This document shows positions 1 through 6,000 of a stretch of DNA of 64,000 nt, piece after piece. The position numbers were made by a program. Every line of letters begins with the position of its first letter. Positions within the stretch are counted from its first letter, which is position 1. The stretch covers positions 1 to 64,000 of the forward strand of contig JBHICG010000011.1 in NCBI GenBank assembly GCA_046759445.1, given 5' to 3'. Origin of the DNA: Candidatus Scalinduaceae bacterium (GTDB lineage: Bacteria; Planctomycetota; Brocadiia; Brocadiales; Scalinduaceae).

Positions 1-3000
1 CAGGATATTGTAAAGAATGTCAAGAAGGCTAAAGAACTGACGAATGACATAGCTAGTGCATCTTCCGAACAATCAGAGGGGATAAGCCAGGTGAGTAATA
101 CGGTGGATCAGATGGACCATATTACGCAGCAAAATGCGGCAAGTGCTGAAGAAACTGCATCTGCAAGTGAGGAATTGTCGGCCCAGGCTCAAAACCTGAA
201 AGAGCAAGTCGAGATGTTATCCTCGCATGTTGGAATTAAAGAAAATAGATCGTTGCATGGCAGCAAGAGTAATGCACAACTGCCGGAAACCAGCAATGTA
301 AAAGGTAATGGTAATGGTAACGATAACGATAACGGTAAAGGCGCAACAGAACCTGAGGCATTAATACCACTGGATGAAAACAGGGTTGTGGAACATAGTG
401 AATAGGGGGAAACTAGGGAGTTGCGTTGGTGCGCTTAACTCGTTTGTGGTGTATGAATTACACACCCCCCAAAATATCTATCCGAAAAATGTCAGGATGT
501 GAATGACAAACTGATTACTTTCGACGGCATATCGGTCAATTGCAATACCTCCGAACCAGAGTGTCATAAAGAGATTCAGCATAACAAACAGTTTACCGCT
601 GGCAGTCGGCTCCGGTCTGCAGCGTCCGTATCGCAACAGAACACAGGCAAACAGTAGAGTTGCCGTCATTAAACCGATACGAATAACGTCTGCTATAAGC
701 AGGCCAAACAGGTTGCCTGTGGTGACACCCGCCAATAGGGCAATAATCCAGATCAGGATGAGACTTCTTAATTTTTCCGGTTTTATTCGGGAAAACAGGT
801 TCGGCAGACCGCTACGCCTGGCGTCCTCAGGATATGAAAGAGCCAGCAGCCAAAGATGAGGAACCTGCCAGAGTACGATAGTACCGGCAAGAAGCATGAT
901 CCGATAGTCGAGTGCGGAACCGCCTGCCAAAAGCCATCCCATAACGGGTGGAATAGCTCCGCAAAGCGATCCTGGCAATACGGCGAATGGGGTAAGACGC
1001 TTCAGGCTGGTGTATACGCCATTATACCAGATTATTGCAAAGATTCCGAGGAGGAAGACCTGACTGTTGCCAAGAAGCAAGAGCGCAAACAATCCGGCGG
1101 TAATCAGCAGAACGGAAATCAATGTACCGGTACGTATACCCAGATGCCCGGTGGCAAGAGGCCGTTTACGGGTACGAAGCATGCGGGCGTCAACGTCTTT
1201 CTCCTGTACCTGATTCAGGGCTGAACCACCAGCTGCCAGAAGCCATATTCCCGCGCATAATAACAGTCCCGGGACGGCATTCGGCTCCGCCGGATATAGC
1301 AAGTAGCCTGCCAACGACGAAAAGGCCACTAGAAAAGAAAGATGTGATCGGGTTAATCGGTTAGACATGCTCATGGCATTATCATGTAAAAATTTATTGC
1401 ATCATTTTGAAATTCGTATTTCGTACTTTACGTATCTTTTTGGAATGCTCCCATTTGCTCTCAGTTTTCTATATTCCTAAAGTTTTTGCAGTATAGCGAT
1501 GATGGCGTAAAATTCCTCGTTCGACAATTCAACAGTCGGCATAGCGGCTGGAAATCCGAGTACGATTTCAAGTTTCGGCTCACGAATGGAGCGCAAAAGG
1601 TAATCACGGTCACTGGTGAACGTTATTTCCTGACCATCTTTCTTTACGGTTACCTGCCGGTTAAAAACTCCTTTCAGGCTTGGCCCGATAAGCGGAGAAC
1701 CGTCCAGGGAATGACATTTGGTACAGTCGTACTTTTCAAGCAGGGCAAGGCCCGGAGGTACCTCTTCAGGCTCCGATTCGGGTTGCAACCATTCATCAAA
1801 TTCCTCTTCCGACACCGCTTCAACCGTTGTTACCATATCCGAATGGCCTACCCCGCAGTACTCGGCACAGAAGACGTTGTATGAACTGACTTCATCGGCA
1901 ACAAACCATACATAGTTTTCCATGCCGGGAACACAGTCTCGCTTAACACGGAATGCAGGGATAAAAAAGCTGTGGATCACGTCTTTAGACAGCAAGCGTA
2001 CTTTCACCGGTTTACCGACGGGCACATACAGCTTGTTGCTGGTTTTGCCGTTTTCATAAGTAAATAGCCATGACCATTTGCGGGCTGATACCTGTACCTC
2101 CATGGCGTCTGCCGGAGCCCTTCGCAGGGAGAGATAACCCTCCCATCCAAACCAGAACATGGACAGAACAATAATGGTCGGAATAATCGTCCAGGACAAT
2201 TCAAGCCAGACAATGTCTTCTTCCGTCTCTTCCGGTACCGGACAGCGCCTGCGGTTATAGCGTATGGCAAAATAGATCAAAGTTGTTACTACACCGATCA
2301 GTATGATGACGTTGATGCCTAATATGAAGTAGAAGACAGGATCGACCGATTCGGCCGTTGTGTTTATCCTCGGATCCAAGATACCCCCTTACCGGTATAA
2401 AACGTCAAAAAAAGTGAAGCCGATAAAAATTGCCAAAATACACAATGCGACCAGCAGGAAAAGTTTAAATATTGGTCGTTCATATTTCATGTGCATGAAA
2501 AAGGATATGATCAGGGCCGACTTGGTCGATGCTATTCCGAGGGCGACCCATATATTAAGTGCCCCGAGATCGACATAAGACACGGTTACCGTCACTCCAG
2601 TTAACACCAGCAGCACCAACCAGATAATAACAATGACCTTATAACTGACAATATGTTCATGCTCGGACATAATTTATCCTTTTCTCATTTTATTCATTTT
2701 TCTTCTCCATTTGATGGGGCATGGATAATTCGTTCCTAAAGAACAAGGTAATACAGCGCAAATATGTAGATCCAGATCATGTCGACCAGATGCCAGTAAA
2801 GTCCCACGTTTTCCAGTAACAGCCAGTCTTTAGAGTTTACCCGGTTAATTTTGATCTCCAACCATACCCAGGAAAGCACCAGAATACCGATTATAACATG
2901 GATACCATGTAATCCCGTCGTGATATAGTAGAGGCTGAAGAAGATCGATTCTCCGGGAGCAATCTCTTTCATATGCGGTGAGCCGGGAAAAATACCGTGA

Positions 3001-6000
3001 TGAATCTTGGCACTCCATTCGAAGTATTTATTAATCAAGAAGAGTACCGCAAAACCTATTGTACCGCTAAGAAGGCCGAGAGTAAGTCTCTTTGCATTAC
3101 GCCGCAATGCGGTGACCGACATTGCAACGAAAAAACTGCTGGTCAGCAATACCAGAGTGTTGCTGCCACCAAAACGGATGTCGAGTTGATCTCCGGCAGA
3201 AATGAATTCTTTTGGATAACGCTTCAGGTAAACTGCATAGAGGATAAAGAGACCGCCAAACAGCATTACCTCGCTAAAGAGGAAGAACCACATGCCGAGT
3301 TTGCCGCCGGTATGATCTTTGTGATGTTCACTCATAATATTCCCGCTTTTTTGAAATCATAGGGGCCGTGTGTTACCACGGGGTCTTCATCAAAGTTTTC
3401 ATGCGGCGGCGGTGACGAAACCGTCCATTCGAGGGTTGCGCCTCCCCAAGGATTTTTGTCAACGGGTTTACCCTTAAAGATGCCGTAAAAAAGATTGACG
3501 AACATCAGTGCCAGACCGATAGTAAGAACCCAGGAACCGCAGGTCGCCAGCATATTGAGACCGGCAAATTCCGGCAAGTAGTCGTAGTAGCGACGCGGCA
3601 TCCCCTGAATGCCGACAACCATCATCGGCATATAAACAACATTAATTCCTACAAAGATAATTGTCCAGGATATGATCGCCGCTTTTTTGTTGTACATTCT
3701 GCCGTAAACCTTTGGCAGCCAGTAGTGCATGGCGGCAAAAAAGGCCATGCCGGTGCCGCCGAACATGGTGTAGTGAAAGTGGCCGACTACAAAATGTGTA
3801 TCATGCACGTGCACGTTGGTTGCCGCCGAGCCAAGCACCAGACCGGTTAAACCGCCGATTGCAAACAGAAGAATGAAGGAAAGCGCAAAAAGCATGGGTG
3901 GGTCAAGCAGGATAGAACCCTTGTACATGGTGGTCAGCCAACTAAAGATTTTGATTGCCGATGGAATTGCAACAAGGAAGGTGAGTAATGAAAAAACAAG
4001 TATCGCAGCCTCTGACATGCCACTGGTGTACATATGGTGAGCCCAGACCATGGAACCTGCAAATGCAATGGCGAAACTGGAAATGACCATTGCCTTGTAT
4101 CCGAAAGCCGGTTTACGGGCAAATACCGGCACAATCTCGGAGATTACCCCCATGGCCGGTAATATCATAATATAAACCGCCGGATGTGAATATATCCAAA
4201 ACAGATGCTGAAACATGATCGGATCGCCGCCGAGGGACGGATTGAATAGCCCCGCCCCGAGAACCCGTTCGACAAAAATCAGTACCACGGTAATTCCTAG
4301 TACCGGGGTTGCCAGTAACTGAATCCAGGAAGTGGTATACAGGGCCCACACGAAAAGAGACAGCCTTCCCCAAGTCAGTCCTTCGGCACGTAACCAGTGA
4401 ATGGTAATTAGAAAATTAAGACCGGTGAGTATGGACGAAAAACCGAGGATGAAGACGGCAAACGCCGCCAGGGAGACGTTGGCAGTCGTTTCCAGACTAT
4501 AGGGAACGTAAAAAGTCCAACCGGTATCAGGCGCGCCGCCTCCAGTGAATAAGGAGGTTACAGCTAATAAAGCGCCACCTATGTAAAGCCACCAGGAGAA
4601 TAGATTCAGACGGGGAAAGGCTACGTCGCGAGCACCAATTTGAATCGGCATCATCAGATTGCCGAAAGCTGCCGGTATACTGGGTATAATAAAGAGGAAA
4701 ATCATGGTCACTCCATGCAGAGTAAATGCGGCGTTATAGGTCTGGGCACCCAAGATTGTTTTGCCGGGAGCAATAAGTTCAAGCCGGATCAGCACGCCAA
4801 GCATGGAGCCGAATATGAAGAAACCTGCAATACACCAAAAGTAAAGCAGACCAATCCGCTTGTGATCCGTTGAGAAAATCCATGCCTTTATTCCGTAGCA
4901 ACGATCGGAGTTTTCAAAGAAGCCACGATTTGCGGCAATATTCATTGAGGCGTCTGCCATAATTGATTATCTCCTTTTTTTCTTTTTACCGCCAAACATC
5001 AGAAATGCCAGAAAAATGGCGGCGATACCTAAAACCACGGAACCTGAAATCCGTAAAAGATTGAAAACATAGGTTTTCTTTCCCGGGTCGTAACTGAAAC
5101 AAAATTTTACCATTTTCTGGATCGTTGTACCAAGTTTTCCTTCAGAGGCTTCTACTAAAGCCAGGGTTATATCCTTTGGTAGAAAATGGGTGCCATGCAA
5201 ATAGCGTACAATCTGGCCCTTGGAGTTGACGACAAAAACAACTACCGGATGCAGAATCTGACCGTCGGTTTTCTGAAAATAATAGCCGGCAGTATTGGTC
5301 AGCCGATAGATATTTTCTTTATCTCCCGTCAGGAATCGCCAGACATGTTTAGGAAACTTGTCCCGCATTGATTTGAAATACATCTTTTTGCTTGCTCTGG
5401 CCAACTCCGCGTCTTCCGTGTCATCAAAACTTATCGACAGTACGGTAAACTGCTTTCCTGGTTCAAGACGAACGTCGGGAAGTACTCTTGCCAGGTCCGT
5501 CTGTATAAAATTACAGACATTCGGGCAACGAAAATAAACCGGGGCAATGATTACCGGCCCCTTTATTAACTGTCTCAATGTTACTACCTGCCCCGATTCA
5601 TTGTAAAATTCAAGGTCAAGCGGAAGCATCGCGCCGATTTGTTCTTTAAGCCGCACACTGGTTACTTCAGCAGGCATTTCTTTGTGCAGATGCTCGTCAT
5701 GCATTTCCATGGCGGCAGTATGGTTGTATCCGTCGTCGGCTTCCTTCGCTAGCGAAGCCATTGGAAACATAAGCAGGATAGAACACACCGCAAGAGATGT
5801 ATACAATAGCACAGGGTACTTTCTTTGTTTCATTCTCATGTAAACCAAAGCATCATTAAACGGATTTCGTGGGAGTTTGCTCAACAATATAGAGTAGACG
5901 CATAAACATATAACACCATTGACAGTAAATAAGTTATGATATGTGCGAGAGGGGATTCTTTGTAAAAGTAGCGACAAGTAATATGTATCAAATGACCAGG

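Follow-up and report, generated by a model that had tools for sequence, protein, structure and literature searches.

How an A-family heme-copper oxidase came to be encoded at the extreme end of a contig from a marine Scalinduaceae anammox bacterium (genome G000), and whether this DNA belongs to the genome at all, is the question raised by this locus. The window, i.e. the whole stretch of DNA that was analysed, comprises 64,000 nt of contig C11. Its positions 460-6038 likely represent a genuine, intact A2 oxidase cassette that was acquired laterally and forms part of the chromosome in an anammox bacterium of the Scalindua lineage. The features of the locus are as follows.

1-405, plus strand: methyl-accepting chemotaxis protein (MCP) gene, 3' end (MCPsignal match); left neighbour of the cassette, outside it
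460-6038, minus strand: transferable unit shared with G083 (genus g3), delimited by DNA matches to G083:C154 and G083:C5 and by GC
478-1374, minus strand: ctaB, heme O synthase (protoheme IX farnesyltransferase); UbiA 135 bits, TIGR01473 160 bits
1477-2379, minus strand: coxB, subunit II; COX2 and COX2_TM (Pfam), CoxB TIGR02866 183 bits, above cut-off
2389-2670, minus strand: coxD, small subunit IV; COX4_pro 56 bits, TIGR02229 caa3_sub_IV 79 bits, above cut-off
2736-3335, minus strand: coxC, subunit III, short five-helix form of 199 aa; COX3 54 bits
3332-4960, minus strand: coxA, catalytic subunit I, assigned to the A2 subtype; COX1 489 bits, CtaD_CoxA 661 bits
4967-5839, minus strand: sco1, copper chaperone for CuA assembly; SCO1-SenC 34.7 bits (cut-off 22.8), CPNVC motif
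6049-6390, minus strand: holB (DNA polymerase III delta') C-terminal-domain remnant, a startless stop-to-stop frame of 113 codons
6380-6456, no strand: short dispersed repeat of Scalinduaceae genomes; 85-93% matches on other G083 and G088 contigs
6621-9270, plus strand: native flank with cobQ (6621-8201) and cbiB (8272-9270); cobyric acid synthase 639 bits, CbiB 247 bits (NCBIfam)

All six oxidase frames lie on the minus strand where the first-pass annotation had placed them, with matching families in Pfam and NCBIfam. They are arranged in the order sco1-coxA-coxC-coxD-coxB-ctaB, all six are open, and the catalytic motifs are intact throughout. CoxA contains the motifs YSHPAVY, WAHHM and HDTHFVVGHFH. 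In CoxB, a pair of membrane helices at the N-terminus is followed by a CuA cupredoxin domain and, at the C-terminus, a single cytochrome c domain; the CuA motif (CAEYCGVGHSDM, residue 171) and the sole CXXCH site (CTKCH, residue 219), both quoted earlier, are found in the translation. Two NCBIfam matches stay below their cut-offs, namely those of coxA to CtaD_CoxA (cut-off 671) and of ctaB to the heme o synthase model TIGR01473 (cut-off 210), and coxC covers positions 74-254 of the 258 in the COX3 profile (Pfam). The start of sco1 is the ATG at 5839; a longer frame with a TTG start, which extends to 5977, is probably not used.

The operon genes span 478-5839, and the 5.6-kb cassette begins about 18 nt after the stop codon of ctaB and extends about 200 nt upstream of the ATG of sco1. 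Its GC content is 0.466 compared to 0.370 for the G000 genome, the GC of its first 5 kb ranks fourth among 1243 five-kb windows (mean 0.369, sd 0.024), and the cassette lies 7-10 points above both Scalinduaceae hosts (G000 and G083). Terminal repeats, a tRNA, an integrase and a transposase were sought at the cassette and none was found; the cassette therefore most likely entered within larger pieces of DNA, through homologous or illegitimate recombination. In G000, the cassette would have landed in or beside the cobalamin operon.

Junction with the host DNA

Synteny with both congeners (G088 and G089) begins at the native flank, where cobQ and cbiB share 77-79% DNA identity with G088:C8 and G089:C57. 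A repeated DNA search agrees with the earlier observation that these genomes match the window only from 6606/6621 onward, and in both of them the aminotransferase-cobQ junction is uninterrupted at the G000 insertion site. The named relatives of CobQ belong to Candidatus Scalindua rubra, S. japonica and Scalindua sp. (66-76%); host identity is also indicated by HZS_alpha on G000 contig C98. The MCP gene begins on contig C117; the final 55 nt of that contig are the first 55 nt of the window. Its DNA is 84-90% identical to the genus-g3 genomes G074, G068, G087 and G079, with homology stopping at about 397-404. The holB remnant, which adjoins the cassette edge, matches only the C-terminal ends of the NCBIfam delta' profiles (E 4e-8 to 2e-3) and is 81% identical to G083:C254 versus 69% to G089:C8 of the same genus.

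The cassette is physically joined to Scalindua-type DNA. One unbranched Logan contig of run X1 (k=31, 3448 nt) covers window 4754-8201, and with it the entire junction, with 0 differences, and three overlapping pieces of run X2, likewise with 0 differences, span 3938-7760; as X1 and X2 may be the samples behind the G000 assembly, these bridging contigs are independent in assembler, not in data. Depth is equal on either side of the junction in the two samples (X1: cassette 14-20, flank 17-18; X2: cassette 12.5-17, flank 11-12).

It is improbable that the first 6 kb of the contig, together with C117, derive from a member of the Desulfuromonadia or a second, g3 Scalinduaceae population and were artificially joined via the repeat at 6380-6456. 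Such an origin would account for the location of the cassette at the contig end, 10 GC points off the rest, and for the g3-like MCP gene and holB remnant. The X2 graph also branches at 5837-5866 and at 6378-6406, where its unitigs break and leave free ends at 6370 and 6456; a minor cassette variant (about 90% identical, depth 4-5) is present in both runs, and the other three anammox copies are found on contigs of 4.8-7.4 kb. Besides the unbranched contig and the even depth, however, the other carriers argue against an artefact. The halves of the G083 cassette, on C154 and at the end of the 20-kb C5, run on into Scalinduaceae-type DNA on either side, which is homologous to G000 contigs C49, C41 and C1 at 72-79%. 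The G083 insertion site differs from that of G000, and since the flanks differ on both sides, the G000 cassette is not simply a G083-like contig. The copies in G035 and G036 belong to their own genomes, because genus-wide REP-like repeats, also present in the cassette-free G037, occur in their flanks and between coxC and coxD. The junction holds, which speaks against the worry about a second population in the sample, raised in the first-pass annotation; the g3-like MCP gene and holB remnant fit a mosaic island, but also some admixture from a g3 population.

Other carriers, selection and remaining oxidases

As reported before, the operon is absent from both congeners, and a repeated CoxA search found it in four of the 92 genomes of the order, including G000. 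The others are G035 (82% identity to G000), G036 (83%, from residue 136) and G083 (91%, cut by the contig end). The truncated G083 coxA had been recorded as such, but not that the gene is broken: TGG has become TGA at W254, and CAT has become CAA at the histidine that binds CuB. Further copies were found in metagenomes, namely L200 (CoxA 94% identical, intact over residues 87-542) and the groundwater contig L235 (83%). CoxB carries one CXXCH site in the Scalinduaceae (G000, G083) and two in the Brocadiaceae (genus g17).

The CcoN model for cbb3 oxidases matches 23 of the 27 other Scalinduaceae genomes, both congeners included. G088 and G089 each carry a full cbb3 cluster, and G083 retains cbb3. 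A search of G000 revealed neither a cbb3 cluster nor any oxidase-type heme-copper enzyme besides the cassette. The COX1 gene on contig C56 is cNOR-like (348 bits to NorB of 3o0r, HLWVEG motif), as described earlier for the other COX1 genes; the accompanying statement that FixO is missing needs qualification, as the FixO model matches weakly on C115 (21.4 bits, or 42.5 with neighbours in frame) inside a 967-aa frame. C115 has no COX1 match. The cbb3 cluster of both congeners, missing from G000, had previously been overlooked.

There is little reason to regard the G000 cassette as a non-functional or decaying passenger without physiological use. The broken coxA of G083 suggests such a fate, and dN/dS is higher against G083 (0.18-0.31) than against G035 (0.07-0.14). 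All these values are nevertheless well below 1, and the cassette is under purifying selection. The intact frames and motifs of G000, the likewise intact L200 copy and the lack of another oxidase-type enzyme found in G000 also speak against a mere passenger.

Phylogeny and transfer

In both CoxA trees, which are based on quick searches, the four anammox sequences form one clade (100 and 99, both starred) composed of a Scalinduaceae and a Brocadiaceae pair. Together with three Thermodesulfobacteriota MAGs, they constitute a starred set of seven; of the three nearest rows, two carry the label Desulfobulbales. This set is located inside a Desulfuromonadia clade of 81 rows (96, starred) or 28 rows (97, starred). 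By sequence, the nearest relatives of the cassette are thus placed among the Thermodesulfobacteriota (Desulfuromonadia), in agreement with the repeated genome-contig scan, whose best 80 loci are nearly all from Desulfuromonadales/Geobacteraceae (61-83%). The operon order, with sco1 first and ctaB last, is the same at all five Desulfuromonadia loci examined. That CoxA nests inside Desulfuromonadales, as proposed before, holds for the best tree (SH-aLRT 96-99). A clade of the 24 Thermodesulfobacteriota-like rows without the anammox four is not rejected by the AU test (delta lnL 23.3, p 0.133), so that the anammox sequences may represent a sister clade of the Desulfuromonadia group instead of being nested in it.

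At the DNA level, window 3994-6038 is 90.2% identical to G083:C154 and window 460-2556 88% to G083:C5. Across the cassette, identity between G000 and G083 is 87-90%. The core baseline, 140 segments drawn from 353 kb of G083, has a median of 74.0% (sd 3.5, max 87.4), and none of the 140 reaches 88%. The cassette proteins are 84-91% identical between these genomes (core median 73%, n = 207), and dS of the cassette genes is 0.23-0.32. Compared to G035, the proteins share 64-82% identity (core median 52%, n = 50, 95th percentile 68.7) and rank within the highest 0-12% of the core values.

The four copies form one clade, and the cassette has therefore probably moved between anammox lineages; lateral transfer and sharing among anammox bacteria, as first proposed, are supported by this clade, the foreign GC and the patchy occurrence. 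The cassette would have entered an anammox lineage from a Desulfuromonadia-like donor within the Thermodesulfobacteriota, and later transfer would have carried it between anammox families and genera. Vertical inheritance from an anammox ancestor, with loss in about 88 of the 92 sampled genomes and gene-tree pairs mirroring the species tree, is most implausible: it would fit the monophyly of the four copies, their family-wise pairs, the permitted position outside the Desulfuromonadia clade and the related A-type CoxA of other Planctomycetota (up to 65% identity), but a tree constrained to keep all Planctomycetota in one clade is rejected (p-AU 6e-65), and the identities to G083 and G035, the dS values, the differing insertion sites, the raised GC and the uninterrupted junction in both congeners stand against it.

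Enzyme type, predicted function and published oxidases

The closest solved structure to CoxA is the caa3 oxidase of Thermus thermophilus (2yev, 447 bits), whose YSHPTVY aligns with YSHPAVY, and sequence assigns CoxA to the A2 subfamily. In both enzymes, the YSHP(A/T)VY motif of helix VI replaces the A1 glutamate and cytochrome c is fused to subunit II. In contrast to the separate genes of G000, subunits I and III are fused in Thermus (791-aa chain). The hemes a/a3 of Thermus are made by heme A synthase, and the control search with PF02628 does match a Thermus genome, whereas G000, G035, G036 and G083 (MAGs 78-97% complete; G000 97%) yielded no match. Heme A synthase is also absent from four of the five relatives' genomes searched, and the one present is not beside the operon; none was seen adjacent to the operon at the five Desulfuromonadia loci examined. 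Hemes a/a3 are therefore unlikely. The earlier label 'caa3-type' lacks support, and gene content points to a c(o/b)o3-like enzyme, probably with hemes O and B in place of A. The Desulfovibrio enzyme has the heme composition cc(b/o)o3. Subunit II has two CXXCH sites in four of the five Desulfuromonadia examined, compared to the one in G000 and G083.

The enzyme would accept electrons from c-type cytochromes via the fused heme c and CuA and reduce O2 to water at the heme-CuB centre. O2 reduction and oxygen scavenging are its predicted function, by sequence and by analogy; in a strict anaerobe it may also yield some energy under microaerobic conditions, similar to the enzymes of Geobacter and Desulfovibrio. 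GSU0219-0222 of Geobacter sulfurreducens and the cc(b/o)o3 oxidase of Desulfovibrio vulgaris are oxidases of strict or near-strict anaerobes and have a role in oxygen protection, according to the relevant passages of PMC6964889; they share the operon clade with the G000 cassette. The G000 host differs from these in being an anammox planctomycete with an anammoxosome. The same role is presumed for the Scalindua cbb3 oxidase, which belongs to family C, not A2; it is azide-sensitive, highly expressed and held responsible for microoxic survival (passages of PMC13253579, ISME J 2026).

The marine Scalinduaceae carrier and the Desulfobacterota origin, presented as news in the first-pass annotation, had already been published (PMC11265455, mSystems 2024). 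The passages concerned describe the Mariana Trench Scalinduaceae MAG D.200.bin4.133, like G000 a marine Scalinduaceae with an A-family oxidase, as the only one with type A among 76 anammox genomes, the other oxidases being type C. Horizontal transfer from Desulfobacterota is inferred there, and oxygen scavenging or aerobic respiration is proposed. In the same passages the enzyme is called aa3, heme A synthase goes unmentioned ('ctaA' occurs 0 times), and cassette limits, insertion sites and inter-anammox exchange, given here, do not appear. A caa3-type oxidase (CoxAB) with possible oxygen detoxification was reported for three 'clade II' groundwater anammox MAGs (PMC8862662, mSystems 2022), in a passage without phylogeny, transfer or cofactor analysis; these copies are probably of the kind seen in genus g17.

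With an A-type oxidase known from a Scalinduaceae MAG since 2024 and caa3 from groundwater anammox MAGs since 2022, as far as these passages go, the cassette is a real finding of an ordinary kind. New are the cassette limits with two insertion sites, the single heme c site in CoxB of Scalinduaceae versus two in Brocadiaceae, and the contrast between G000, without the cbb3 cluster typical of the family, and G083, which combines cbb3 with a broken coxA.

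The oxidase operon and its join to Scalindua DNA

On the minus strand of the window, positions 478-5839 encode six genes that overlap or lie close together. Every reading frame is open, and the genes were named with Pfam and NCBIfam:

sco1, 4967-5839, minus strand, copper chaperone
coxA, 3332-4960, minus strand, subunit I (542 aa)
coxC, 2736-3335, minus strand, subunit III
coxD, 2389-2670, minus strand, subunit IV
coxB, 1477-2379, minus strand, subunit II
ctaB, 478-1374, minus strand, putative heme O synthase

CoxA matches COX1 with 489 bits over profile positions 1-436 and CtaD_CoxA with 661 bits, slightly below the equivalog cut-off of 671. 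The closest solved structure is the caa3 oxidase of Thermus thermophilus (2yev, 447 bits), with which the motifs FTLHG, YSHPAVY, WAHHM and HDTHFVVGHFH align at identical positions. CoxA is accordingly an A-family heme-copper oxidase subunit I, with histidine ligands for CuB and for both hemes, low-spin and high-spin. Enzymes of the A2 subfamily have a Tyr-Ser pair in helix VI (YSHPxV) at the place where A1 enzymes (xGHPEV) have a proton-gating Glu. YSHPAVY at CoxA residue 257 pairs with YSHPTVY of the Thermus enzyme and is also found in the Brocadiaceae genome G035; the aligned YS marks CoxA as an A2 member. The CuA site of CoxB is complete (HSFFIP ... CAEYCGVGHSDM). CoxB scores 183 bits against TIGR02866, above the cut-off, and CyoA and QoxA, the models for quinol oxidases, stay far under theirs. 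By its CuA site and TIGR02866 match, the enzyme is a cytochrome c oxidase and not a quinol oxidase. The A-family oxidase operon that the first-pass annotation had placed here is confirmed as written, since the six open frames, the CuA motif, CTKCH in CoxB and the CoxA ligand motifs are all found as described.

The cassette containing the operon (window 460-6038) stands at the extreme start of its contig, C11. GC content is 0.466 over window 1-5900 versus 0.370 in the genome, and the first 5 kb of the cassette rank fourth by GC among 1243 five-kb windows (mean 0.369, sd 0.024). As this pattern suits lateral transfer and a chimeric contig equally, the join was tested. A 3448-nt Logan contig from sequencing run X1 spans window 4754-8201 with 0 differences, and three error-free overlapping pieces from run X2 cover window 3938-7760. 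Both runs may be source samples of the assembly, so that these bridges represent an independent assembler, not independent data. Sequencing depth is similar in cassette and flank, with 14-20 versus 17-18 in X1 and 12.5-17 versus 11-12 in X2. The X2 assembly graph branches at 5837-5866 and 6378-6406, and the data of these runs contain a minor cassette variant, about 90% identical, at a depth of 4-5. From 6621 on, the flank (cobQ-cbiB) is 77-79% identical to both other genomes of the genus, G088 and G089. The named relatives of CobQ are Candidatus Scalindua species, and a hydrazine synthase alpha domain is encoded in the same genome (G000). The A2-type cytochrome c oxidase cassette is real, intact, laterally acquired and well anchored in a genome of the Scalindua lineage. 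Cassette-like pieces, 91-98% identical, are also present in two runs from other studies (X3 and X4); no habitat is concluded from them because their hosts cannot be told.

Further GC-rich stretches (0.45-0.48 in the 0.37 genome) are found on G000 contigs C13 (1-12500), C64 (1-7500) and C19 (42501-47500), two of them at contig starts. Positions 10093-10271 of C64 are 79% identical to the first 179 nt of the G035 cassette contig, an ATP synthase beta/epsilon fragment.

Cassette limits, exchange and origin

In G083, a genome of genus g3 from the same family, the cassette is split over two contigs. Window 3994-6038 matches G083:C154 at 90.2%, and the 20-kb contig G083:C5 ends in a stretch that matches window 460-2556 at 88%. 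Homology runs from about 18 nt past the ctaB stop to some 200 nt upstream of the ATG that starts sco1, and these limits define a cassette of 5.6 kb. Outside both edges, the G083 DNA is of Scalinduaceae type and 72-79% identical to G000 contigs C49, C41 and C1; the chromosomal site therefore differs from that in G000. In G088 and G089, the gene directly before cobQ is a class I/II aminotransferase. In G000, this gene is located near the end of C24, and the cobalamin gene row is therefore split in this genome.

Neither terminal direct or inverted repeats nor target duplications were found at 460/6038, no tRNA target was found in window 1-10000, and the ORFs of C117, the C24 tail and the window contain no recombinase domain (Pfam, NCBIfam). 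The cassette thus shows none of the machinery of its own that a genomic island or mobile element would bring. Rfam searches of window 1-9000 (E<=0.1) and of C117, C101 and the tails of C24 and C33 returned no match, and therefore no cobalamin riboswitch before cobQ; an identification of the shared contig-end repeats as group II intron ends likewise found no support. A promoter/terminator scan of 300-6700 was not clearly over shuffles (17 vs 11.6, sd 3.6; 7 vs 6.4) and was set aside.

The cassette surroundings look like a mosaic of g3-like pieces, judged by the similarity of two neighbouring genes. Directly at the cassette edge, window 6049-6390 (minus strand) holds a startless holB remnant (DNA polymerase III delta' C-terminal domain), which is 81% identical to G083 DNA and 69% to a congener. 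A gene for a methyl-accepting chemotaxis protein (MCP) extends over G000:C117 2024-3815 and window 1-405, the two contigs being joined over a 55-nt overlap. It is 84-90% identical to four cassette-free g3 genomes, with only a paralog-level match (74%) in its own genus, and may be a second recently exchanged piece. One terminal 55-mer is shared by C24 and C101, another by C33 and the reverse-complemented C117. Such contig pairs have 60-75 nt of repeat in common, and at least one such end link is present in 103 of the 145 G000 contigs. A path C24-repeat-C117-C11 is possible but unproven; where the island truly joins on its left may be masked by the repeat that separates C24 from C117.

Cassette DNA of G000 and G083 is 87-90% identical versus a core median of 74.0% (sd 3.5, max 87.4). 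The core was sampled as 140 segments (500 bp or longer) from 353 kb, and not one reaches 88%. The cassette proteins are 84-91% identical (core median 73%, n=207). For G035, which belongs to a different family (f4), the values are 64-82% versus a core median of 52% (n=50, 95th percentile 68.7). For the G000-G083 comparison, dS is only 0.23-0.32, and dN/dS of the cassette is 0.18-0.31 against G083 and 0.07-0.14 against G035. A single segment of the core sample, G083:C18 (L169 118-1360) versus G000:C121 1411-2656, stands at 87% DNA identity (median 74%) and may be another conserved or exchanged piece.

The copies in the Brocadiaceae genomes G035 and G036 (genus g17) are located on contigs of 7.4 and 5.5 kb, and contigs this short could be misbinned. 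Short repeats occur in the flanks of the G035 cassette contig and between coxC and coxD, and are spread over three g17 genomes including the cassette-free G037. Because these genus-wide repeats are found in and beside the operon, the G035 copy resides in its genome. On this contig (L013, G035:C127), the dispersed repeat families occupy 384-1173, 4379-4451 and 7295-7398. One repeat, a palindrome of about 65 nt, lies inside the acquired operon between coxC and coxD; copies with 84-100% identity are found on many G035, G036 and G037 contigs. An apparent N-terminal deletion in coxA of G036 is a scaffold gap (run of N). When metagenome contigs were searched with CoxA, only two of the 80 loci kept were close, L200 (94%), whose 4.3-kb contig has no flanks, and L235 (83%, 2.3 kb), and none of the 80 provided a new insertion site. 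The present locus shows that the operon, a compact unit of 5.6 kb, travels among anammox genera and families.

The operon is present in 4 of 92 genomes of the order, G000 included, in agreement with the patchy distribution first described. CoxA trees were reconstructed by quick searches, one from 112 sequences (79 of the best 80 genome-contig loci, 29 other Planctomycetota and the four anammox copies; one of the 80 loci was dropped as a duplicate of G036) and one from a subset of 50 under a site-heterogeneous model. Both trees unite the anammox four in a single clade (starred values of 100 and 99), which consists of one pair from Scalinduaceae and one from Brocadiaceae. This clade is located within a starred set of seven, together with one Desulfuromonadales and two Desulfobulbales MAGs, and the set sits in a Desulfuromonadia clade of 81 (starred 96) or 28 (starred 97) sequences. 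The AU test rejects a grouping of all Planctomycetota (p-AU 6e-65) and does not reject a grouping of the 24 Thermodesulfobacteriota-like sequences without the anammox four (p-AU 0.133). Transfer into anammox bacteria is well supported by distribution, composition, insertion sites and tree. Of the Desulfuromonadales origin proposed earlier, the lateral transfer stands; the nesting within the donor group is the arrangement in the trees, and the latter test leaves room for a sister position. The donor is most fittingly called Desulfuromonadia-like, which is not proven.

In PMC11265455 (2024), one Scalinduaceae MAG among 76 anammox genomes is already described as carrying a type A oxidase, for which the authors infer a Desulfobacterota source by transfer and suggest a role in scavenging or aerobic respiration. 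The claim of novelty is thereby withdrawn, and the core of the earlier interpretation, a laterally acquired A-family oxidase operon, holds. For three groundwater anammox MAGs, caa3 genes are reported in PMC8862662 (2022). The present locus is a second marine Scalinduaceae carrier of an A-type oxidase and is physically well anchored. Anammox bacteria are treated as obligate anaerobes, and their oxygen limit shapes the places of marine nitrogen loss; the oxidase they carry and the ease of its exchange bear on this limit.

Subunit II and heme type

CoxB of G000 has a single CXXCH (CTKCH) at residue 219 of 300, C-terminal to the CuA domain. The 'caa3-type' assignment is therefore retained in one part: subunit II ends in a fused cytochrome c domain. 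Hemes a and a3 require heme A synthase, and their part of the assignment is not supported: a search for CtaA/Cox15 (PF02628), which in a control matched 7 of 14 known genomes, gave no match in G000 (97% complete), in the other three carriers (G035, G036, G083) or in G088 and G089. Among five whole genomes of relatives, one has a match. In all five long Desulfuromonadia loci examined, the order sco1-coxA-coxC-coxD-coxB-ctaB is present, and none has a heme A synthase adjoining the operon. The position of ctaB is kept in relatives; its product matches UbiA with 135 bits and, as best NCBIfam model, TIGR01473 cyoE_ctaB with 160 bits (cut-off 210).

With a putative heme O synthase present and heme A synthase absent, the label 'caa3', like 'aa3' in print, is unsupported, and a heme O/B enzyme is the better reading. 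Such an enzyme would resemble the Desulfovibrio cc(b/o)o3 oxidase mentioned in PMC6964889. The dihaem type of Desulfovibrio differs, however, in having two haem c sites in subunit II, versus one in G000. Within the clade, the shorter CoxB (300-301 aa) of G000 and G083 carries one CXXCH, and the longer CoxB (401-439 aa) of G035, G036 and four of the five Desulfuromonadia examined carries two. Since the heme A pathway is missing, the printed 'aa3/caa3' label and the reading as 'low-affinity aerobic respiration' rest on no cofactor evidence and should be taken with caution.

Other oxidases and a possible replacement

Oxygen reduction in Scalindua is ascribed to a cbb3 oxidase and flavodiiron proteins in PMC13253579 (2026). 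CcoN is matched in 23 of the 27 other Scalinduaceae genomes and exceeds the curated cut-off in 16; both congeners are among the 23, under the cut-off. In G000, no CcoN was found (TIGR00780, E<=1e-10), the top match being the cassette's own CoxA with 39 bits, and the CcoN-CcoO pair of a C-family (cbb3) oxidase is lacking. A weak match to the FixO model (21 bits; 42.5 with neighbours in frame) is located at G000:C115 1177-1305 inside a 967-aa frame, and C115 carries no COX1 gene. A COX1-like match on C8, considered as a ccoN remnant, is a free-standing 140-aa membrane protein.

The congener G088 encodes a complete cbb3-type cluster on C7 (L286 3633-13750), comprising a cytochrome c, a CcoN-like protein (448 aa), a CcoO-P fusion (444 aa), a DsbD-like protein and a P-type ATPase. 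The same CcoN-like gene is found between the same flanks on G089:C43. In G000, these flanks are located mid-contig on C46 and C35, and the roughly 14 kb between them have no counterpart.

The g17 genomes, the carriers G035 and G036 among them, lack CcoN, and the carrier G083 retains an intact CcoN (649 bits). In the G083 coxA (L015, G083:C154, 4577-4667), Trp254 is changed to a stop codon (TGG>TGA) and the CuB histidine of YSHPAVY to Gln (CAT>CAA); either the gene is a pseudogene or the consensus is in error here. The resulting either/or pattern of CcoN versus intact coxA across n=4 carriers is suggestive. It leads to the tentative and rather doubtful reading that the G000 lineage replaced the high-affinity cbb3 cluster usual in its family with the acquired low-affinity A2 oxidase, the two enzymes being redundant and one kept. 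If so, a marine anammox lineage of hydrothermal vents would have moved its oxygen handling to an enzyme class tied to higher O2. The possible replacement offers a testable handle on detoxification versus energy conservation. In the literature searched, which has most subscription journals outside it, nothing was found on the cassette limits and two insertion sites, cassette exchange between one anammox genus and another, the lack of a heme A pathway, the number of haem c sites in subunit II (one versus two), or the cbb3-versus-A2 pattern.

The other COX1 gene, on C56 (L002 1423-3752), had been called NOR-like, and this agrees with its 348-bit match to Pseudomonas NorB (3o0r) and its HLWVEG motif, by which it is cNOR-like; no cbb3 structure is among its matches. 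A 315-aa multihaem cytochrome c gene is located upstream. Genes of this type may lead to cbb3 being reported too often for anammox genomes.

Two long proteins, one of 756 aa at G000:C1 150223-152493 (L139 319-2589) and one of 648 aa at L286 13994-15940, match cytochrome bd subunit I over its N-terminal half only (75-90 bits); the latter is encoded by a CydA-like gene that adjoins the G088 cbb3-type cluster. The two are not canonical CydAB, and each adjoins a CarboxypepD_reg-domain protein.
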